IMG/VR virus record: IMGVR_UViG_3300012942_000058
Span: 1 to 51,183 of that record
Source of the DNA: a virus
Lineage: Duplodnaviria > Caudoviricetes
Length of the DNA stretch: 51,183 nucleotides
Direction: 5' to 3' (one strand)
Shown: positions 4,073 to 48,948 of the stretch, piece after piece
Layout: every line of letters begins with the position of its first letter
Numbering within the stretch: the first letter of the stretch is position 1
Notes under the pieces: generated by a model
Databases searched by the model: none
Told to the model about the DNA's origin: nothing
Seen by the model: the letters and a program-made list of their open reading frames with translations, nothing else
Program-made: the position numbers and the translations under genes

Positions 4073-5655
4073 TGGCTGCTCGCGTCGTAGCTCGGGTGCC
4101 GACCGGCACCGCACCCGACCCGAAGGCCGCACCGGCCGACGCACGCGAGCGCGACGACGACCTGAGGGGCGACCCCAGTCAGCGCCATCCGGACCTGGTC
4201 CGCATGAGCGACGACTATCAGGAGATGCGCGACTGCCGCGCCGGAGCGACCACGATCAAGGCCGAGGGGCAGAAGTACCTGCCCATGCCCGACGGATTCC
4301 GCGCCCAGAACGACGGCGGCGCAGGAATGTACGAGTCGTACAAGAAGCGGGCTCAGTTCCCCGACATCGTGTCGCCCACGGTGCTCGGCATGGTGGGCAT
4401 CGTCCACTCGCGCGAGGCGCAGATCGAGGGCCTGGAGGAGGGATCGGCCCTGGAGTACCTGTGGGAGAAGGCCACGCCAGATGGCCTGCCGCTGGAGGTG
4501 CTCCACCGCATGATCACCGAGGAGATCCTGACCCTCGGTCGGGTGGCGCTGTTCGCAGATCCGCCCGCCGAGGGCGGCGAGCCGCTGATCGCGCTGTACA
4601 AGGCCGAGAGCCTGATCAACTGGTCGGACAGCCGCGACTTCTTCGTTCTGGAGGAGTCGTACCGCATCCGCACCGGCTTCAGCTGGGACGACCGCACCCG
4701 CTACCGCGTCCTGCGGCTGGTGGACGATCGCTACGTGGTCGTCGTTCTGGACAAGGACGGCACACCCCAGACCGTGGGGTCGGCCGAGGACACCGAGGAC
4801 CAGGAGGACCGCAGCACGGAGGCATCCCCGGTCGCCCGAGGCGGGCAGGCCCTGGAAGAGATTCCGCTGGTGGTGGCCGGGTCGCGCGACCTGTCCCTGG
4901 AGCCCGACGAGATGCCCCTGATAGGCGTGGCTCGCGCCGCGACGGCGATCTACCGGCTGGACGCCGACTACCGGCACCAGCTGTTCATGGCCGGACAGGA
5001 GACGCTGTTCGTGTCGGGCCTGGACGTCAAGGACGCACCCGACTTTGTCGGTGCTGGCGTGATCGTCTGCCTGCCCGAGAACGCCAGCGCCCAGTATGTC
5101 GGGCCGAGCGGCGAGGGCATCGACTCCCACAAGACCGCGATCGACGACGAGCGCGAGGTGGCTGCGGCCGCAGGGTCGCGGGTGTTCGAGACGGGCCAGA
5201 AGGGTCAAGCCGAGTCCGGGGATGCCCTGAGGATACGGGCGCGCGCTGGCACGGCGACGCTGGTCTCGGTGGCTCTGTCCTCGGCTGCGGCCCTGGAGCG
5301 CATTCTGCGGCACTGCGCCACGATGGTGGGTGCCGACCCGGAGAGCATAGTCGTCACGCCGAACCTGGACTTCGTCGACGCCAAGATGACGCCCGACGAG
5401 GCCGCCAAGCTGATGGAGCTGTGGCTGCAGGGCGTGATCAGCTACGACACCCTGTACGAGAACCTGCAGCGCGGCGAGATCGCCTCCCAGGAGCGCACCG
5501 CCGAAGAGGAGCAGGATCTGGTGGCCCAGGAGCAGACCCAGACCACCGACGACGAGGGTGGCGCGGGCGTGGACGACGAGACCGACGAGGACGCGGAGGG
5601 CGAGGAGGACCCCGAGACCGCAGCCTACTTCTCGACGGACTACCTGGATGCGTAG
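4072..5655 (+). CDS. Portal protein (DUF4055-type)
   Basis: Starts MAARVV at 4072 overlapping the terL stop; 'KYLPMP...YESYKKRAQF', 'YKAESLINW', 'AESGDALRIR'; acidic C-tail; position after terL. Confidence 0.85.
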   Translation: MAARVVARVPTGTAPDPKAAPADARERDDDLRGDPSQRHPDLVRMSDDYQEMRDCRAGATTIKAEGQKYLPMPDGFRAQNDGGAGMYESYKKRAQFPDIVSPTVLGMVGIVHSREAQIEGLEEGSALEYLWEKATPDGLPLEVLHRMITEEILTLGRVALFADPPAEGGEPLIALYKAESLINWSDSRDFFVLEESYRIRTGFSWDDRTRYRVLRLVDDRYVVVVLDKDGTPQTVGSAEDTEDQEDRSTEASPVARGGQALEEIPLVVAGSRDLSLEPDEMPLIGVARAATAIYRLDADYRHQLFMAGQETLFVSGLDVKDAPDFVGAGVIVCLPENASAQYVGPSGEGIDSHKTAIDDEREVAAAAGSRVFETGQKGQAESGDALRIRARAGTATLVSVALSSAAALERILRHCATMVGADPESIVVTPNLDFVDAKMTPDEAAKLMELWLQGVISYDTLYENLQRGEIASQERTAEEEQDLVAQEQTQTTDDEGGAGVDDETDEDAEGEEDPETAAYFSTDYLDA

Positions 5656-6676
5656 GGTCAAGAAGAAGGAGGAGGCGACCCACCTCTCGGGTCGGTCTCT
5701 CGGGGCGCGCGCCGCCTACCAGGAGAGCAAGCACCGCCGCGATGCGGAGGGACGCTACGCCGACAAGCCGGGGGCCGGAGACGATGCACCCAGGAAGGGT
5801 TGGCGTCCGGCTGCCGAGGACGACATCGTTGGTCGCCGGTCGGGCGGAGCGGGCGAGGAGACCGCCGCCGAGAGCCGAGTGCGCCCGGTGGAGAAGATGA
5901 GCGACGAGGAGGCGCAGGGGTCGCTGGAGTGGAAGAACGACCCCGAGCGCTGGGCCGCAGCCGAGGCGGGGGCAGAGGCCAGCACGCACGCTGCCCCCAC
6001 TCTCGGCACGGTGAGCGAGGCCGAGTTCACGCCCGAGCAGAAGCTGGCCGTGGATCGGATGGCCGACCAGCTAGACCAGATGGGCATAACCCACCTGACC
6101 TCGGCCGACAGCTCGGCCGTCAAGCTGTACACCGGCACCTCGTCGGCGTACAAGAACATAAACAAGGCGCTTCGTCGCGCCGACACCTCGAAGCTGAAGC
6201 CAGCCGAGCTGGAGGCGGCGAGGGAGCTGCAGGAGCACATGAAGGCGTCCGTCATGAAGCGGGACGCGGTGTTCTACCGGGGCGTGGAGAAGGTCGGCAA
6301 GTTCGACAAGATGCCGCCGCCCTCGGACTTCGCCGACAACGGATTCCAGTCCACCAGCATGAACTCTCGGTTCTCCGAGAAGTTCAGCGGCGCGACATTC
6401 GACAGTGCCGCGTTCGGCGAGGGCACCACGGGAACCATGTTCAAGATCCGGGTTCCCAAGGGCTCTCACGCCCTCAGCGTGTCGCGCGCCGACAACGTTC
6501 GCTCTGGGCTGGCCGAGTCGGCCGAGGTGCTGCTTCCGCCGGGCACGCGCTATCGCTACGTGTCTCACGAGGTGCAGACTCGGACGGTGCCGGGCTACGG
6601 CAGCGCGCCGGAGCGGAAGTTCCGGGTCAAGGTGATCGAGGTCGAGGTGGTGAGGGCAGATGGCTCGGGCTACTGA
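5648..6676 (+). CDS. ADP-ribosyltransferase 1 (VIP2/C2-like R-S-E clade)
   Basis: 'YT...YKNINKALR', 'VFYRG', 'GFQSTS', 'FKIRVPKG', 'SAEVLLPPG'; N-terminal 'ESKHRRDAEGRY'; ATG at 5648 overlaps the portal end. Confidence 0.85.
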   Translation: MRRVKKKEEATHLSGRSLGARAAYQESKHRRDAEGRYADKPGAGDDAPRKGWRPAAEDDIVGRRSGGAGEETAAESRVRPVEKMSDEEAQGSLEWKNDPERWAAAEAGAEASTHAAPTLGTVSEAEFTPEQKLAVDRMADQLDQMGITHLTSADSSAVKLYTGTSSAYKNINKALRRADTSKLKPAELEAARELQEHMKASVMKRDAVFYRGVEKVGKFDKMPPPSDFADNGFQSTSMNSRFSEKFSGATFDSAAFGEGTTGTMFKIRVPKGSHALSVSRADNVRSGLAESAEVLLPPGTRYRYVSHEVQTRTVPGYGSAPERKFRVKVIEVEVVRADGSGY

Positions 6677-6863
6677 CAAGGAGCGAGGCGCCAGCGGGCG
6701 CTTTCTCGCCGATCCGGACGACGTGGTGTTCCTGGAGCGCGACGAGCGCCAGCGCCGCGTGGCGGCGACCCCGGCCACCGACGACGAGGGCGGGGACGAC
6801 GAGTATGGCGAGGTGAGCGACGAGGAGCTGGCGGAGATGTTCGCCCCCGAGACCCTGGAGTAG
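6660..6863 (+). CDS. Small acidic protein downstream of ART1
   Basis: 67 aa, D/E-rich, overlaps the ART1 stop; 'RGASGRFLADPDDVVFL'. Confidence 0.65.
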   Translation: MARATDKERGASGRFLADPDDVVFLERDERQRRVAATPATDDEGGDDEYGEVSDEELAEMFAPETLE

Positions 6864-6866
6864 GCT

Positions 6867-8669
6867 GTGCAGCACCGCAAGAAGCACCTCGCGGACAAGG
6901 CTGTCGCGGCTCGCGCCAAGTGGGAGTCGTCCAAGCATCCGCGTGGTCCTGGCGGCAAGTTCGTGTCCAAGCCGGGGTCCGAGAAGGCACCGTCGGGTCG
7001 CCACTCGGAGGCGATGAAGGAGAAGGGCAAGACTTCCGGCATCAAGGACGAGGACATCGTCAAGCTGCACGTCGCCCAGAACCCGAAGAAGGCCGGCAGC
7101 AAGTCCGCCGAGGACTTCGCCAAGTACAAGAACGACATGACCGTGGCCGAGTTCAAGGCGGCGGTCGGCAAGGACGCCGCAGGGCACCTTGCGTGGGACA
7201 TCAAGAAGGGCTACATCTCGGTCCATGCGCCGGGGTCGCTGCCCGCAGCCAAGAAGGAGCTGACGAAGGAGAGCTACATCGGCTTCGGGAAGCAGTCCGA
7301 CGTGAAGGGCTCGGACGTGATCAAGCTGCACCCGACCGACGAGGTCGGGAAGATGGTCAACCCCAAGAAGGCCGGTAGCAAGTCCGAGGGCGAGTTCGCC
7401 AAGTACCGCGACGAGATGACCGTGGACGAGTACGTCGCGGCGGTCGGCGACAAGAAGAAGGCGCTGGCCAACATCAAGTGGGACACGGACAAGGGCTTCG
7501 TGTCGGTCCACTCGCCCGAGTCGCTGGAGAGCCTGAGAGCCGGCAAGACGACTGCGCCGAAGTCTCATCTGCCCGAGGGCATCGACGACAGCACTCAGCT
7601 TCTCAACGTCTCCACTGGCGAGGTGAAGACTGTAGCCGAGATGAAGAAGCCTCTTGTTGGCAGTGGCTTCAAGAACGAGACGGTAGAGAAGAGCATCGCC
7701 GCCTCCGTGAAGGAGGGCTCGCTGAAGAAGTACACTGCTCCTAAGGTCGCCGACCTGAAGAGTAGCGACCACCTTGTGCTCCAGACCACTGGGCCGAATC
7801 CCTACAAGGAGGGGTCGCCGGAGTGGATCAAGTACAAGGCATTCGAGCTGCAGCACGGCAAGCCGCACACGCTCGACTCGTATATGGCGACCAAGTCGCT
7901 GGACACGACCCAGAAGAAGGCGGTGCTGCAGACGCTGATCGACGACGGGCACATCAAGCTGGTGACCAAGGAGCAGCTGGCGGCGGTGGCCGCAGCCAAG
8001 GCGGCGTCCCCGTACCCTGTAGTCAAGCAGTCGGCGAAGCCGAAGCTGCCGGACGTGAGCGACGAGCGCTGGGGCAAGGTCCTGAGGTCCGACACTCTGG
8101 AGGACCTGCGCCACAAGGACTCCGGCTACGACCTGATGATGCAGTCGGCCAAGAACATGGGCGCTGTTCGACGCACGACCAGCTCCAGCTCGGCGCTGGC
8201 GAGCTATAAGGGTAGTGGCTACAGCTACATCAACAGCAGCCTGCGCGAGGGCAAGCCGCCGACGAGCCAGGCTCTGGCGCTGGACGCGCTGATGAAGCCG
8301 ACCACGGCAGACGCGATAGTCTACCGGGGTCACAACGTGAAGTACATGAACAACATGCCGCCTCCGCCGGAGTTCGAGGAGCTGGGCTTCAGCTCGGTCT
8401 CGCACAATCCGGCGGTGTCTCAGTCCTTCTCCAAGGGTTCGAACACCATCTTCAGGATAAGGGTGCCGAAGGGCACTCCTGCCCTGCAGATCACGCAGGG
8501 CGGCACGAGCGACGAGGCGCTGAGGAACGAGCTTGGCTACGAGGCCGAGGTGGTCCTGGCGCGCGGCACTCGCTACAAGTACGTCAGCCACGAGACGGTC
8601 GGCGGCTGGAAGATCATAGACGTGATTGCCGTCGGACCGCACGGCGGCGCGGCGAAGAGCGGAGTCTGA
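6867..8669 (+). CDS. ADP-ribosyltransferase 2 with N-terminal HPR motif and three 'NPK' repeat domains
   Basis: C-terminal 'YSYINSSLR', 'IVYRG', 'GFSSVS', 'FRIRVPKG', 'EAEVVLARG'; N-terminal 'WESSKHPRGPGGKF'; internal repeats NPKKAGSKS...MTV...WD..KG(Y/F)(I/V)SV. Confidence 0.85.
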   Translation: MQHRKKHLADKAVAARAKWESSKHPRGPGGKFVSKPGSEKAPSGRHSEAMKEKGKTSGIKDEDIVKLHVAQNPKKAGSKSAEDFAKYKNDMTVAEFKAAVGKDAAGHLAWDIKKGYISVHAPGSLPAAKKELTKESYIGFGKQSDVKGSDVIKLHPTDEVGKMVNPKKAGSKSEGEFAKYRDEMTVDEYVAAVGDKKKALANIKWDTDKGFVSVHSPESLESLRAGKTTAPKSHLPEGIDDSTQLLNVSTGEVKTVAEMKKPLVGSGFKNETVEKSIAASVKEGSLKKYTAPKVADLKSSDHLVLQTTGPNPYKEGSPEWIKYKAFELQHGKPHTLDSYMATKSLDTTQKKAVLQTLIDDGHIKLVTKEQLAAVAAAKAASPYPVVKQSAKPKLPDVSDERWGKVLRSDTLEDLRHKDSGYDLMMQSAKNMGAVRRTTSSSSALASYKGSGYSYINSSLREGKPPTSQALALDALMKPTTADAIVYRGHNVKYMNNMPPPPEFEELGFSSVSHNPAVSQSFSKGSNTIFRIRVPKGTPALQITQGGTSDEALRNELGYEAEVVLARGTRYKYVSHETVGGWKIIDVIAVGPHGGAAKSGV

Positions 8670-8670
8670 C

Positions 8671-8832
8671 ATGGCGCCAAGAGACAGCAACGAGCGCATG
8701 GGCTGGTCCGACGGCGACGTGATCCCGCTGGACGCCGACGAGATGGTTCAGCTGCCCGAGGGATACGACGTCGGTCCCTGGGCTGAGGCCGAGGACCTGA
8801 CCCCGGCAGACGACGAAGGAGACGACGAATGA
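8671..8832 (+). CDS. Small acidic protein downstream of ART2
   Basis: 53 aa from ATG 8671 with GGAG SD; 'NERMGWSDGDVIPL', D/E-rich. Confidence 0.6.
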   Translation: MAPRDSNERMGWSDGDVIPLDADEMVQLPEGYDVGPWAEAEDLTPADDEGDDE

Positions 8833-9146
8833 GCAGTGGTGGCGTTCAGGCGGTTCGCGATGTCGACCGCGAGGCACTCATCGAGGCACTGTCGGGCGGC
8901 GGTGGCGGAGGCTCGGGCCTCACAGACACCCAGCTGCGGGCCTCCCCGGTCCCCGTCAGCGGACCGCTGACCAGCGCGAACCTGACGGCGGTGACGGGCA
9001 CGGCAGCCCAGACTGCCGTGACGACCGATCCGGCCGCTGCGGGACAGACGATGCTGTCCGTCATGCGCGGCATTCTGGCGGAGCTGCAGACGCAGACAGC
9101 TCTACTGAACGACATCAAGACCAACACCGCTGGTGCTGGCGTATAG
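8829..9146 (+). CDS. Hypothetical protein, probably virion-associated
   Basis: ATGA overlap; Gly linker then 'LTDTQLRASPVPVSGPLT'. Confidence 0.6.
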   Translation: MSSGGVQAVRDVDREALIEALSGGGGGGSGLTDTQLRASPVPVSGPLTSANLTAVTGTAAQTAVTTDPAAAGQTMLSVMRGILAELQTQTALLNDIKTNTAGAGV

Positions 9147-9163: not shown

Positions 9164-9237
9164 TCGGCTGGCAGTGCCGCCGACAACCGCTCGTGCCAGT
9201 GGCCGGGCAAGCAAGAGGAGAGGTGTCAGTGACCCTC
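9164..9237 (+). promoter_or_regulatory. Three tandem bulged CAGUG-loop hairpins in the scaffold leader; the third contains the GTG start
   Basis: tcggc-T-gg-CAGTG-cc-gccga; ctcg-T-gc-CAGTG-gc-cggg; gagg-T-gt-CAGTG-ac-cctc. Confidence 0.75.
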
Positions 9238-10080
9238 AGAGCAGTAGTAGACTCCCTCGACGACATTCCCGAGGGGCTTCGCGACGAGTACGTCGAGCAC
9301 AACGGAAAGTTCTACCTGGACCTGGACGACACTCTGTCGGTCCACACCAGCATCGTTCCGCTGTCGACGGCTCTGGCCAACGCCAAGAAGGAGAAGCAGC
9401 GGGCGCAGAACGACTACAATGCGCTCAGGACCCGCATCGCGGGGCTGCCGGACGACTTCGATGCCGACAAGTACCAGCAGGTGCTAGACGAGCTGGAGAC
9501 GCTGCGTGCGGACCCGAACGGGGACCACGATGCGGAGGCCAAGCTGACCACCCTGCGCGACAAGTACGAGCAGCGTCTGCGCGACGCGGAGGCCAAGCGC
9601 GTGGCTGACCTCGCCGAGAAGGACGGAGTCATCGACTCCCTCGGTGGCGAGCTGGACGGCGCAGCGGCCAAGCGCGGCCTGTCCGACGCACTCGCCAAGG
9701 CAGGCATCGACCCGAAGTTCATGGCTGCTGCTCAGGCGCTCCTGCGCCCGACCGTCAAGGTCCGCAAGAACGAGACGACCGGCGACCGCGAGGCCGTCGT
9801 GGACACCGACCTCGGCGAGGTGACGGTGGAGAAGTACGTCGAGAACTGGGCCAAGTCCGACGAGGGCAAGCCGTTTGTGCTTCCCTCCAAGGGCAGCGGT
9901 GCCCCCGGATCGGGCCACACTGGCCGGACCGAGGTCAATCCGTGGGCCAAGGACACGCTCAACCTCACCGAGCAGGGCCGGGTCATCCAGTCCGATCGGG
10001 CGAAGGCCGAGCGCCTCATGAAGGCTGCGGGCAAGACCGCAGACGAGATCTCTCGGGTCCTGGGCCGCGCAGCGGCCTGA
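9229..10080 (+). CDS. Capsid scaffolding protein
   Basis: GTG at 9229 after AGGAG; 'LRAVVDSLDDIPE...Y...GKFYLDL', coiled coil, 'GSGA', 'NPWAKDTLNLTEQG'; precedes the capsid gene. Confidence 0.8.
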   Translation: MTLRAVVDSLDDIPEGLRDEYVEHNGKFYLDLDDTLSVHTSIVPLSTALANAKKEKQRAQNDYNALRTRIAGLPDDFDADKYQQVLDELETLRADPNGDHDAEAKLTTLRDKYEQRLRDAEAKRVADLAEKDGVIDSLGGELDGAAAKRGLSDALAKAGIDPKFMAAAQALLRPTVKVRKNETTGDREAVVDTDLGEVTVEKYVENWAKSDEGKPFVLPSKGSGAPGSGHTGRTEVNPWAKDTLNLTEQGRVIQSDRAKAERLMKAAGKTADEISRVLGRAAA

Positions 10081-13337: not shown

Positions 13338-14408
13338 ATGGCCGACAGGACGTATCTCGAGCAGCTGCTGGACGACATGGAGCCGGCGATGCGGGAGGCA
13401 TTCCTGCAGGCGCTGCGCGACATCTCCAGTCAGGTTGTTCTCAGGGCACTGGTGGATCGCCTCGCCGCAGGAGATCTGGACGGAGCTGCCTCGGTGTTCG
13501 GTCTGGAGCCCGAGGTGTTCTCTGGCGTCGCCGACGCGCAGGAGACGACCTATCGGGATGCTGGCGTGCTGGTGGCCGACGCCCAGCGCGTGGTCCGCAC
13601 TCCCGAGGGTGCTCGGCTGGTGCTCCGGTTCAACGTGCGCAACCCGAGAGCCGAGGAGTGGCTGCGGACGGAGTCGTCCCGCCTCGTTCTTGGCCTGAGC
13701 CGCACGGCGAAGAAGACTGTTCGCGCTGCTCTCTCCGCCGGCATGGAGCGTGGCCTCAACCCGAAGACCACCGCGCTCGACGTGGTGGGTCGCGTGTCGG
13801 CCCAGACGGGGCGTCGGGAGGGAGGAGTGCTGGGACTCACGCCCACGCAGCTCGGCTACGTGGAGCGCGCCCGCGCAGAGCTCCTCAGCGGCGACCCTGC
13901 GGCCCTGCGGCGGTATCTGGGGCGTCAGCGGCGCGACGCCCGGTTCGACGCCCGCGTGCGCCGGGCCATCGAGAGCGGGAAGCCGCTCCTGGCCGACGAC
14001 GTGAGAAGGATGATCGGTCGGTACTCCGACCGCCTGCTCCAGCTGCGCGGCGAGACCATCGCCCGCACGGAGACCATTCTGGCTCTGCACGCAGGCCAGG
14101 AGGAGGCCATGCGGCAGGGCATCGAGTCCGGCAAGATTGCGGAGGACGACATCGAGAAGATCTGGCACCATGTTGCCGACTCTCGTGTTCGCCACTCTCA
14201 CGTGCTGCTCGGCGGCAAGCATGTTCCGTACAGCGAGGCCTTCGTCTCGCCCATCAGCGGCGCCAGGATGATGTATCCGGGCGACACGAAGACCGACCCG
14301 ACCCGCATCACTGGCGCGGACACCATCAACTGCCGCTGTCACGCGGAGTACAGGGTGGACTACGTCGGTGCGGCCGCGCGCCGGTTCAGGGCGAGGCAGA
14401 AGACATGA
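13338..14408 (+). CDS. Phage MuF / minor head morphogenesis protein
   Basis: 'RGETIARTE', 'KIW...DSRVRHSH', 'MYPGD', 'INCRC'. Confidence 0.9.
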   Translation: MADRTYLEQLLDDMEPAMREAFLQALRDISSQVVLRALVDRLAAGDLDGAASVFGLEPEVFSGVADAQETTYRDAGVLVADAQRVVRTPEGARLVLRFNVRNPRAEEWLRTESSRLVLGLSRTAKKTVRAALSAGMERGLNPKTTALDVVGRVSAQTGRREGGVLGLTPTQLGYVERARAELLSGDPAALRRYLGRQRRDARFDARVRRAIESGKPLLADDVRRMIGRYSDRLLQLRGETIARTETILALHAGQEEAMRQGIESGKIAEDDIEKIWHHVADSRVRHSHVLLGGKHVPYSEAFVSPISGARMMYPGDTKTDPTRITGADTINCRCHAEYRVDYVGAAARRFRARQKT

Positions 14409-40025: not shown

Positions 40026-40309
40026 CACCGGCCCAGGCCGAGAGACTCGAGATGCTGGCCGAGGAGGCCGCAGAGGTCGTCCAGATGTGCACGAAGATCC
40101 TTCGGCACGGATACAGCAGCTATCATCCGGACGATCCTAAGAGGACGCGGAACGGCGTCCTTCTGGAGAAGGAGCTGGACGAGCTGGACGCGATCCGCAG
40201 AGCGATGCACGAGGAGAGAGATCTCCCTGCCGTGTCGGCCGAGTTCTGGCGCGACGTCTGGCGACGCAAGCTCCGCTGGACGCACCACCAGACGGAGGAG
40301 CATCAGTGA
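40007..40309 (+). CDS. MazG-like nucleotide pyrophosphohydrolase
   Basis: 'LAEEAAEVVQ...KILRHG', 'LEKELDEL'; GGAGG SD. Confidence 0.65.
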   Translation: MSHPSLTPAQAERLEMLAEEAAEVVQMCTKILRHGYSSYHPDDPKRTRNGVLLEKELDELDAIRRAMHEERDLPAVSAEFWRDVWRRKLRWTHHQTEEHQ

Positions 40310-41826
40310 CTCCGGAGATCGTCCTCGGGCCACCGGGAACTGGAAAGACAACCACACTTCTCGGCATGGTCGAGGAGGAGCTGGCGCGCGGCGTCGCTCC
40401 GGACCGCATAGGGTACATCAGCTTCACGCGCAAGGCGACCGAGGAGGCTCGCTCCCGCGCCACGCAGCGCTTCTCCCTGCGCGCCAGCCAGCTGCCGTGG
40501 GTCCGCACCATCCACTCGCTGTGCTTCGCTGCTCTCGGTCTGTCGTCGTCGGAGGTGCTGGAGGGACCGAAGCTGCGCGAGTTCGGCGACTGGATCGGAG
40601 TCCCGGTCACCGGAATGGTCTCCGGCGCGGAAGAGGGGTCGACGTTCGGCTTCGAGACCGGGGACCGCTGCCTGTTCATGGAGAACCTTGCCCGCGTCCG
40701 CATGATTCCTCTGCGTCAGCAGTACGACACCAACTCGGACGATCTCCCGTGGGCGCTGGTCGACCGGGTGTCTCGGGGTCTTGCCGAGTACAAGAAGGCG
40801 CGGGGTCTCGTGGACTTCACCGACATGCTCCAGATGTTCGCCGACTCGGAGTGGAGCGCCCGGCTGGAGGTGCTCTTCGTGGACGAGGCTCAGGACCTGT
40901 CGCTGCTTCAGTGGCGAGTCGTGGAGCGCCTTGCTCGGGGCGCACGCCGCGTCGTGCTGGCCGGAGACGACGACCAGGCAATCTACTCCTGGGCGGGCGC
41001 AGCGACGGAGCACTTCGTCTCCATGCCGGGCCAGGCAAGGACGCTGGAGCGCTCCTGGCGCGTGCCCTCGGCCGTTCAGCCCACGGCGCTACGCATCCTC
41101 GCTGGTGTTCGTCAGCGGCGCGACAAGGTCTGGAGGCCGCGAGAGGGCAGCGCGGGCGTGGTCTCTCGGGTCCAGTCGCTGGACGAGGTGGACTTTGCCT
41201 CCGGAGAGGAGACGCTGGTGCTCTCCCGCAACGCCTGCTTCCTGCGGGACGATGCCATGCCTCTTCTGCGCTCCGAGGGTGTGCTGTACGACTTTCGCGG
41301 CGCGACGTCCGTGCGTCAGTCGCTGGTCGAGGCCATCCTCGACTGGGAGACTCTGCGCCGAGGCGAGCGCATCTCGATCAAGCAGGCCGAGCGAGTGTAC
41401 CAGCAGCTGCGTGTCGGAGAGGGTGTAGCCCGAGGACACAAGAAGCTACCCGCCTGGACCGATCGAGACGAGGAGGTGGACATTCGCGACTTGAGGGGAC
41501 GCGGTGGTCTCCTGACTGACGCCATCTGGCACGAGGCGATGGACCGCATCGACCCGAGCGACCGAGCCTACATGGTCAAGGCCCTACGCCGAGGCGACCG
41601 GCTGACGCGTCGGCCGCTCGTGCGTCTGTCCACCATCCACGGCTCCAAGGGCGGCGAGGCTCCTCATGTGGTGCTGATTCGGGACGTGGCGTGGCGCACC
41701 TACCGAGAGAGCCTGGACGCTCCCGAAGACGAGTCGCGCGTCTGGTACGTGGCTGCGACCAGAGCCCAGGAGCGACTGACCATCGTTGCTCCGCAGACGC
41801 GCTCCGAGAGAGCCTTCGACATCTGA
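40306..41826 (+). CDS. UvrD/Rep-family SF1 helicase
   Basis: 'GPPGTGKTT', 'RTIHS', 'VDEAQD', 'AGDDDQAIY', 'STIHGSKGGE', 'YVAATRA'. Confidence 0.92.
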   Translation: MTPEIVLGPPGTGKTTTLLGMVEEELARGVAPDRIGYISFTRKATEEARSRATQRFSLRASQLPWVRTIHSLCFAALGLSSSEVLEGPKLREFGDWIGVPVTGMVSGAEEGSTFGFETGDRCLFMENLARVRMIPLRQQYDTNSDDLPWALVDRVSRGLAEYKKARGLVDFTDMLQMFADSEWSARLEVLFVDEAQDLSLLQWRVVERLARGARRVVLAGDDDQAIYSWAGAATEHFVSMPGQARTLERSWRVPSAVQPTALRILAGVRQRRDKVWRPREGSAGVVSRVQSLDEVDFASGEETLVLSRNACFLRDDAMPLLRSEGVLYDFRGATSVRQSLVEAILDWETLRRGERISIKQAERVYQQLRVGEGVARGHKKLPAWTDRDEEVDIRDLRGRGGLLTDAIWHEAMDRIDPSDRAYMVKALRRGDRLTRRPLVRLSTIHGSKGGEAPHVVLIRDVAWRTYRESLDAPEDESRVWYVAATRAQERLTIVAPQTRSERAFDI

Positions 41827-47349: not shown

Positions 47350-48948
47350 ATGACCACGAAGAAGTTCTTTCCCTCCCCCGAGCAGCAGGCGTTTCTGGAC
47401 TGGATACGCGACGGCTCTGGCTCCTGCGTCCTGGAGGCAGTTGCCGGCGCAGGCAAGACGACAACTCTTGTGGAGGGCGTCAAGCTGATGAGCGGCTCGG
47501 TCTTCCTCGGTGCCTACAACAAGAAGATGGGCGACGAGCTGAAGAGCCGCATCGCCGGCATGCAGGGCAAGATTGCGGGCACCTTTCACTCCGCAGGCTT
47601 CCGGGCGCTGGCTCGCTCCGTGTCCGAGCTGAAGGGCTCCGACGGCAAGGTCCGCTCCGACGCCATCGACGACAAGAAGGTCCGCACCATAGCGGAGGAC
47701 ATGCTGGTCGGGACGGCCGACGAGCACACCGAGGGCCTGATACCCGCGATCTGCCAGCTGGTGAGTCTCGCCAAGCAGACCGGCTTCCTGGTGCGCGGCC
47801 TCGTGGACGAGGACCGACCGAGCTACTGGGCCGAGCTCGTCTCTCGCCACGACGTGGACGAGCGTCTCCCCGAGGACTATCCCGTCTCCCAGCTGTGCGC
47901 TCTGGCGGCTCGCGCCCTCCGCGCATCCAACCGCAAGCGCGACACCATCGACTTCGACGACATGGTCTATCTGCCGCTGCTGCTGAACCTTCGGATGTTC
48001 CGCAACGACTGGGTACTGATCGACGAGGCGCAGGACACCAACGCGGTGCGCCGCGAGCTTGCTGCTCGCATGCTCCGGCCGGGCGGGCGTCTGGTCGCAG
48101 TCGGCGACCCCCATCAGGCCATCTACGGCTTCACCGGGGCCGACAACCGCTCTCTGGACATGATCCGCGAGCGGTTCCGCGCCACCACCCTGCGCCTCTC
48201 CGTCAGCTGGCGGTGCCCGCGCTCCGTAGTCGCCGTGGCCCGCGAGTACGTGGGGCACATTCGCCCAGCTTCGACTGCTGCGGTCGGGGAGACCGCGCAC
48301 ATGACCTACACCGGGATGCTGGCTCGCGTCTCCCCCGGAGACGCTGTCCTCTGCCGGTTCAATGCTCCGCTCGTGGAGCTGTGCTTCCGCCTCATCCGCG
48401 AAGGCAAGCCTGCCAAGATCGAGGGACGCGCCATCGGCGAGGGCCTGATTGCTCTGGTCGGTCGCTGGAAGGTGAAGACTCTGGACGCTCTCGAGGGTCG
48501 CCTGCAGAAGTGGAATGACCGCGAGCGGGCCAAGATCGAGGGAGCCGCCAAGAAGGACGACGCCAAGATGGCGCGTCACGAGGACAAGTACGCAACCATC
48601 CTGGTGCTGCTGGAGCGCGCCCGCGAGCAGAAGATGACGACCGTCTCCGAGATGGAGACCATGATCCGCTCCATGTTTGCGGACGACGCCTCGTCGCCGA
48701 ATCTTGTGGTCCTGGCGTCGGTGCACAAGAGCAAGGGGCTGGAGTGGCCGTCTGTCTATCTTCTGGGCCGGGGCGACATCATGCCCTCGCCGCGCGCAAC
48801 GCAGGAGTGGCAGAAGGAGCAGGAGATCAACCTGTGCTACGTTGCGGTGACCCGCGCGCAGGAGCGTCTCGTGGATGTGGACATGCCTCGTTCCGGAGAG
48901 ACTGGGCAGGCGAAGAAGAGCGAAGAGAGCAAGGAGACAGCAGAATGA
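47350..48948 (+). CDS. Second UvrD-like SF1 helicase
   Basis: 'AVAGAGKTT', 'TFHS', 'IDEAQD', 'VGDPHQAIYGF.GAD', 'SVHKSKGLEW', 'YVAVTRA'. Confidence 0.92.
   Translation: MTTKKFFPSPEQQAFLDWIRDGSGSCVLEAVAGAGKTTTLVEGVKLMSGSVFLGAYNKKMGDELKSRIAGMQGKIAGTFHSAGFRALARSVSELKGSDGKVRSDAIDDKKVRTIAEDMLVGTADEHTEGLIPAICQLVSLAKQTGFLVRGLVDEDRPSYWAELVSRHDVDERLPEDYPVSQLCALAARALRASNRKRDTIDFDDMVYLPLLLNLRMFRNDWVLIDEAQDTNAVRRELAARMLRPGGRLVAVGDPHQAIYGFTGADNRSLDMIRERFRATTLRLSVSWRCPRSVVAVAREYVGHIRPASTAAVGETAHMTYTGMLARVSPGDAVLCRFNAPLVELCFRLIREGKPAKIEGRAIGEGLIALVGRWKVKTLDALEGRLQKWNDRERAKIEGAAKKDDAKMARHEDKYATILVLLERAREQKMTTVSEMETMIRSMFADDASSPNLVVLASVHKSKGLEWPSVYLLGRGDIMPSPRATQEWQKEQEINLCYVAVTRAQERLVDVDMPRSGETGQAKKSEESKETAE

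Follow-up and report, generated by a model that had tools for sequence, protein, structure and literature searches.

The head-gene region of a virus genome recovered from soil encodes two ADP-ribosyltransferases (ARTs) between the portal and scaffold genes; both enzymes carry the same N-terminal leader, each is followed by a coupled small open reading frame (ORF), and in related phages the small gene changes with the cargo that precedes it. The interpretation favoured here, with moderate confidence, is that these capsid-operon enzymes are loaded into the head by the shared leader, injected to modify the host early, and held inactive in the producer cell by their own small proteins.

According to this proposal, the ARTs would be made late, together with the head genes, and the small partners would bind them in the cytoplasm, keeping them inactive in the producing cell; such binding is suggested by gene context and by precedent. 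The leader would load the ARTs into the head, perhaps aided by DNA-binding-like repeats, and the enzymes would then be injected with the DNA and without the partner. Because the small protein carries no leader, it would stay behind, and the enzyme is therefore proposed to be active only in the next cell, where it would ADP-ribosylate host or defence proteins early in infection.

Organization of the locus

The window, that is, the whole stretch of 51,183 bases that was analysed, is a virus record found in one soil-metagenome run, and the stretch is spanned, with no indels and two substitutions, by Logan contigs from a single soil run that may be the source sample. The left arm reads terminase, portal, ART1, ORF1, ART2, ORF2, a 105-aa ORF, scaffold and major capsid protein, with a stand-alone MuF gene further on and then the tail genes; all features given with coordinates here lie on the + strand. 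The cassette is bounded upstream by the portal protein gene (4075–5655; phrog_145, E 1e-106) and downstream by that of the head scaffolding protein (9220–10080, start approximate; phrog_206, E 2e-22). The genome is of the siphovirus type, with no prohead protease detected between the portal and capsid genes and no integrase among the 35 other ORFs scanned in the record, which may be incomplete. The best portal match among annotated phages is a Paracoccus phage (39%). Partner homologues are present in Rhizobium, Pararhizobium and one alphaproteobacterial genome, and these matches together hint at a host among the Alphaproteobacteria.

ART1 (5648–6676; 342 aa) consists of a leader (5663–5782), an acidic linker and an R-S-E ART domain with a Pfam span of 6092–6565 (residues 149–306). 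ART2 (6867–8669; 600 aa, GTG start) comprises a leader (6867–6986), two NPKK repeats of ~73 aa (7023–7520), an NPY module and an R-S-E ART domain whose Pfam span is 8133–8588 (residues 423–574). The start of ART1 overlaps the portal stop, and the start of ORF1 (6660–6863; 67 aa), the candidate partner of ART1, overlaps the ART1 end. ORF2 (8671–8832; 53 aa) follows ART2 and is coupled in turn to the 105-aa ORF (8829–9146), to which no role is assigned and for which tblastn gave no match in the related phage loci. Codon use in the small ORFs is gene-like (GC3 of 0.90 for ORF1 and 0.81 for ORF2), and GAGG/GGAG is found upstream of them.

The original prediction that two R-S-E ARTs separate portal from scaffold, and that a coupled ORF of 53–67 aa comes directly after each, is confirmed by these data: Pfam recognizes both enzymes, PHROG identifies the flanks, and frames, coupling and codon use agree for the small genes. 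Its anatomy was correct as to the R-S-E domains and small ORFs, but overlooked the shared N-terminal leader and the ART2 repeats. The arrangement had also been described as independent of MuF, which holds for the ART proteins, since Pfam finds no MuF domain in ART1 or ART2, but not for the phage, in which MuF is encoded as a separate head-morphogenesis protein that carries no toxin domain (13341–14408; PF04233, E 3.5e-10; phrog_3517).

Co-variation of the small gene with its cargo

A portal search returned 28 loci, 20 of them at 62–65% identity, and the pre-scaffold stretch was readable in seven distinct loci (G001–G006 and L017), each of which has one or two leader genes at this place. Six of these leader genes end in an orthologue of ART2, and all six are followed by an ORF of 57–81 aa with the core RF[GS]DW-x-x-x-x-I-x-x-L. 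Behind leader genes with a terminal HExxH peptidase come different, unrelated ORFs of 68–76 aa (3/3), and leader genes that end in a third domain run straight into the next gene with no small ORF (0/3). L017 has neither an ART nor such a partner. The third domain is left unnamed; one motif makes it look ParB/Srx-like, but neither Pfam nor PDB searches bore this out.

When the ART alignment was used for wider scans, 40 loci emerged, from which duplicates were then removed. A partner of the RF[GSA]DW family comes next after all 14 distinct close C-terminal ARTs, which represent a single phage clade rather than 14 separate events; no partner adjoins two internal ART domains, and five distant ARTs differ in what follows them. 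Scanning in the opposite direction, with only the partner motif as query, returned 14 loci, 12 with an ART directly upstream and two that were chance matches; the match at L102 was due to chance. At L094, a protein that combines ART and peptidase is followed by two small ORFs, one of which has the core. The close loci show conservation and co-variation rather than many independent events. The cognate pairing of ART and small gene that had been predicted gains real comparative support, as the ORF2 family comes after every close C-terminal ART and, with other cargo, gives way to a different ORF or to none.

ORF2, with the core R-M-G-W-x4-V-I-P at about 8695–8727, aligns with this conserved ART-following family, of which 47 other homologues were found. 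When a profile of these 47, collected using an alignment that included ORF2, was compared with 974 window frames, ORF2 ranked first (E 0.005) and ORF1, with its core R-F-x6-V at about 6699–6731, third (E 8); the similarity noted earlier between ORF1 and ORF2 is weak by this measure. The partners (53–67 aa) match no family in Pfam, PHROG or NCBIfam, and Atlas gave no lead (best 0.78). Orphan partners are rare (1/401 and 1/201 genomes, both being the seeds themselves). The tblastn matches of ORF1 behind portals proved to be an acidic portal tail and not homologues.

Acidity had been considered the key feature of the partners. ORF1 and ORF2 do have net charges of −13 and −16 and D+E contents of 31% and 34%, but in the partner family (n=47) the median D+E content is 18% and the median net charge −2, with values of −10 or below in 2/47, and charge mimicry as a family trait was rejected since the family is not strongly acidic. 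A family of very short ART-blocking peptides would, if real, constitute a new kind of antidote and offer a way into the question of how phages keep from poisoning their own assembly.

A looser core behind distant ARTs

Among the 39 loci of the scan for distant ARTs were 16 C-terminal ARTs whose next gene could be called. The next ORF is of 100 aa or less in 3/16 of these, compared with 15/46 controls; most distant head-module ARTs are not followed by a separate small gene. None of the 16 next genes matched the partner profile, and a W-containing partner regex found 0/16. Eleven of the 16, which together form one family, have R-F-x6-7-[VI] at their start, and cores resembling it occur after several other distant ARTs; in distant phages such a core opens the large head-module protein encoded next.

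Scored with a matrix of the close family, ORF1 (12.0 bits) and ORF2 (12.8 bits) both exceed all 45 controls. With the distant-family matrix, ORF1 (13.5 bits) again exceeds all 45, and ORF2 (5.2 bits) lies at or below 7 of them. For 23 distant loci (the 16 plus 7 picked from earlier searches), and with a matrix layout chosen after the sequences had been inspected, core enrichment has a p value of 2e-4, which becomes 0.12 when the 11-member family is counted once; for the other 12 loci the distant-family matrix gives 0.01. Because this layout was post hoc and a high score is also reached by HHTV-1 gp14, which is not the neighbour of an ART, the link that the looser core may form between ORF1 and the peptides after some distant ARTs is suggestive only.

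These observations bear on a different reading, in which the ARTs are packaged and the small ORFs are not inhibitors but folding or loading chaperones, activators or decoy substrates. The conserved part of the partner amounts to only about 12–25 residues, many ARTs have no small gene, and a core that heads a large head-module protein would fit a role in assembly equally well. However, a different C-terminal cargo comes with a different small gene behind an unchanged leader, which is not expected of a chaperone for leader-mediated loading, and a non-inhibitory function is considered unlikely.

A leader at the start of head-module cargo

The N-terminus of each ART consists of a basic stretch together with the motif [WY]-x-E-x-K-H-x-R-x4-G-x-[FY], which alignment resolves as Y-x-E-S-K-H-R-R-x4-G-R-Y in ART1 and W-E-S-S-K-H-P-R-x4-G-K-F in ART2, and which is regarded here as a putative head-loading tag. 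A search of the window with the leader profile, which contained both leaders, gave these two as the only significant matches. Every leader gene at the locus in the seven related phages carries it. There the leader heads variable cargo (an ART, Nudix, HExxH peptidase or unnamed domain across the relatives), and in unrelated phages it is located behind portal or MuF and ahead of cargo. It is placed after the portal domain in portal–ART fusions and recurs within several multidomain proteins; the relatives reach 600–1100 aa with ART, Nudix and metallopeptidase domains, as exemplified by L053, which combines Nudix and ART. The leader was found in 52 of the 150 best representatives and in none of 3 shuffles, a count biased by a query that contained the leader. 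Under relaxed settings, annotated phages yielded five weak matches (E 1–2), and the three that were examined lie in portal extensions or next to MuF. Cultured phages with the leader include Xanthomonas phage PhiXhv-5, in its portal extension, and halovirus HHTV-1, in gp13.

When DNA was scanned independently for W-D-E-x-K-H-P-R, 125 loci were returned, with a total estimated at about 330; they represent 106 distinct contexts, and in 101 of these the sequence continues to G-x-[FWY]. Pfam was applied to 67 of the 106 proteins, leaving out 36 with short flanks and 3 that were tiny or false; 42 had a match and 25 had none. Head domains were present in 26/67 (portal in 20, MuF in 2 and capsid, protease or DUF2213 in 4), many of the portal fusions being near relatives, while the other domains were LPD3, PBECR, ART, kinase-like and Nudix. 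The motif marks the start of cargo in head-module proteins, because it lies C-terminal to the structural domain in 22/22 portal and MuF fusions, typically just before LPD3 or PBECR cargo. The leader matches no Pfam LPD family and gives only weak PHROG matches, one of them to a portal family; no description of it was found in the literature searched. From this placement we infer that the leader may load or eject cargo, and it lends support to the head association of the ARTs.

The position of the leader is also relevant to the possibility that the enzymes are not virion cargo, but that each gene couple acts like a toxin–antitoxin pair late in the infected cell, in superinfection exclusion, host shut-off or timing. 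The tight order of toxin and then partner would suit such pairs, as would ART proteins free of MuF or portal fusion, and the repeats, being lysine-rich and winged-helix-like, might attach to DNA in the cytoplasm. On the other hand, the place between portal and scaffold is fixed in the 7 related phages, the same leader precedes cargo fused to portal and MuF, and head-module ARTs have been argued to be packaged (PMC9503650), all of which renders this possibility quite unlikely.

A broader version of the favoured reading, namely head-loaded ARTs with cognate inhibitors, is put forward only tentatively. The leader, as W-x-E-x-K-H-x-R-x4-G-x-F, might be a general and undescribed head-loading or ejection tag by which a haloarchaeal virus and tailed phages in their hundreds, unrelated to one another, deliver exchangeable effectors independently of MuF. 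The R-F-x6-7-[VI] peptide, in turn, might be a minimal, widespread inhibitor of packaged ARTs, encoded by a micro-gene of its own or placed as a leader at the front of the following head protein. How proteins are chosen for the head and for entry with the DNA is largely an open question in tailed phages beyond the T4-like ones. A cargo-start motif of ~20 residues would allow injected effectors to be predicted from sequence alone and would flag many unnamed domains as candidate effectors, such as those of the leader proteins to which Pfam gives no match.

The two ADP-ribosyltransferases

ART1 and ART2 are classed by domain as R-S-E (Alt/VIP2-type) ADP-ribosyltransferases, with 51.7 bits (E 9e-14) and 45.7 bits (E 6e-12), respectively, against the Pfam family ADPrib_exo_Tox (PF03496; cut-off 23.4). 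The Arg, S-x-S and catalytic Glu are invariant in the ART alignment, and a profile of nine such domains retrieves 14 solved R-S-E ARTs. Each window ART holds one enzyme domain only, and no ADP-ribosylhydrolase adjoins them. The catalytic loop, for which [EQ]-x-E is the form expected of this class, is E-x-E in ART2 and most relatives and an atypical S-x-E in ART1; among 173 regex matches the loop residue is E in 110 and S in 4. An E-x-E loop, as a rule, denotes arginine as the acceptor, and arginine is accordingly the probable target residue of ART2.

The two enzymes are 36% identical over 208 columns. They do not represent a recent duplication, because their domains are 36–39% identical overall and the tree gives no sister pairing; the simple duplication of a cassette, as first envisaged, is not supported. 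ART2 is the orthologue of the conserved pre-scaffold ART gene of the related phages, and it has no match in annotated phages. ART1 has no relative by word-based search; it matches the MuF-ART of Raoultella phage RP180 and the stand-alone ARTs of Streptomyces phages, whose next genes have low or middling core scores. Locus scans with the single proteins ART1, ART2 and scaffold gave no matches, nor did a scan of genome contigs with the ART alignment.

The AlphaFold2 model of NPKK repeat 1 (pLDDT 94.5) is winged-helix-like. Against solved structures the best Z scores are 7.4, a middling score, and 6.8, and Foldseek gave no significant match; the repeat also matches gp18 of phage PhiJL001 (E 2e-4). 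The predicted fold and the charge suggest that the repeats may bind DNA.

That only ART2 and ORF2 work as a pair, with ART1 a diverged or weakly active copy or a NAD hydrolase and the likeness of ORF1 a matter of chance, would be in keeping with the S-x-E loop, the long ART1 branch (2.3), the word-based search without a relative of ART1 and the poor score of ORF1 against the partner profile (E 8), but is improbable given that ART1 retains the Arg, S-T-S, the final Glu and an intact leader and that the ORF1 core beats every control under both matrices.

Comparison with known systems

Alt of phage T4 is a head-packaged R-S-E ART, and the T4 capsid targeting sequence is a short N-terminal loading signal. 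The window enzymes resemble this system in that an R-S-E ART is combined with a short, here putative, N-terminal loading signal; unlike in T4, the leader differs in sequence from the capsid targeting sequence and the genome is of the siphovirus type. The ARTs are not indicated to be Alt orthologues (phrog_802 E 0.039 for ART1, no match for ART2), and we know of no small inhibitor of Alt. About 40 Alt molecules are packaged by T4 (PMC9958956).

The closest parallels are shared with the MuF polymorphic toxins, in which a small gene follows the toxic domain in 89.4% of 191 muf toxin genes (Jamet 2017, PMC5576092). As outlined for those toxins (PMC5576092; Zhang 2012, PMC3482391), the genes described here occupy a head-module position and combine a constant N-terminus and variable C-terminal cargo (ART, metallopeptidase) with a small downstream gene that varies with the cargo. 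However, ART1 and ART2 do not belong to the MuF polymorphic toxins because their cargo is not fused to an N-terminal MuF, which is here a separate gene; the constant part is instead a leader of ~20–40 residues, and one or two cargo genes stand in tandem.

A prophage of Bacteroides stercoris encodes the MuF-ART Bxa together with Bsi, which binds to the enzyme and blocks it (PMC11699363). The order of a phage ART and then a small non-enzymatic gene is the same, although Bxa, as presented there, is fused to MuF and also has a hydrolase antidote, BAH (PMC11699363), and the present partners are set beside Bsi by description.

ARTs near head genes have been argued to be packaged (Iyer 2022, PMC9503650), and phage polyvalent proteins, multidomain products of late genes in which ART, Nudix and metallopeptidase domains occur, are predicted to be packaged and injected (Iyer 2017, PMC5512222; PMC9503650). 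Polyvalent proteins have at least two unrelated effector domains per chain, a composition seen in relatives such as L053 but not in the window, and neither the leader nor the small partners feature in the excerpted accounts of these proteins (PMC5512222, PMC9503650).

MuF toxins with small immunity genes and ARTs in head modules are already in print, and the strong novelty at first attributed to the logic of the cassette does not stand. What appears to be new here is the MuF-free leader and, likewise, the family of short ART-following peptides.

Leader and core motifs in the head-region genes

The database gene call for ART2 (window position 6867), the second of the two ADP-ribosyltransferase (ART) genes, begins at Met50 and gives 551 aa, which removes the leader, the N-terminal motif of both ARTs that may serve as a head-loading tag. 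Similarly, the call for ORF2 (window position 8671), the small ORF directly after ART2, begins at Met10 (44 aa) and loses part of its core (R-M-G-W-x4-V-I-P). With gene calls of this kind, both motifs would escape notice. In 69 of the 106 distinct contexts from the leader scan (L119–L243; an uncontrolled count), the leader is directly preceded by DA, K, E, AAG or NA, residues that may resemble prohead-protease cutting signatures.

In five relatives (L051–L055), the partner, the counterpart of ORF2, is followed by a tiny, very acidic second ORF (44–111 aa) just ahead of the scaffold, for which the acidic tail of the window ORF2 may be a stand-in. Between ORF2 and the scaffold lies a Gly/Thr/Ala-rich ORF of 105 aa (window 8829–9146), which gave no match in family searches and for which no counterpart was found in the related phages. 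Elsewhere, the window carries two paralogous helicase genes (40306–41826 and 47350–48948; phrog_1967). Related phages carry the NPKK repeat, predicted to adopt a winged-helix-like fold, beyond their head modules too, in further genes on the reverse strand upstream of the terminase (L009, L012 and L018).

Partner homologues apart from ARTs

Two partner-family homologues (L100:9960–10138 and L101:10070–10160) belong to genomes in which a genome-wide search revealed no ART relative, and are possibly orphan antidotes. One, from an uncultured alphaproteobacterium, lies directly behind a gene for a tyrosine integrase. The other, from Rhizobium sp. YTU87027, is a fragment. Pararhizobium capsulatum supplies a third protein of the family. 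The taxa bearing these homologues hint at an alphaproteobacterial host for the window phage.

Comparison with other systems

In a distant phage group (L247, L256, L258 and eight similar loci), the ART gene and the next gene have a different leader in common, K-H-G-x-H-D-Q-x-x-H-G-x-W, and the next gene opens with the R-F core (R-F-x6-7-[VI]), N-terminal to that leader. The archaeal halovirus HHTV-1 has the same gene layout as the window: its gp13 (1100 aa; L099:3605–7191) contains the leader as well as HExxH motifs, and behind it come first a 95-aa ORF, then a stand-alone MuF.
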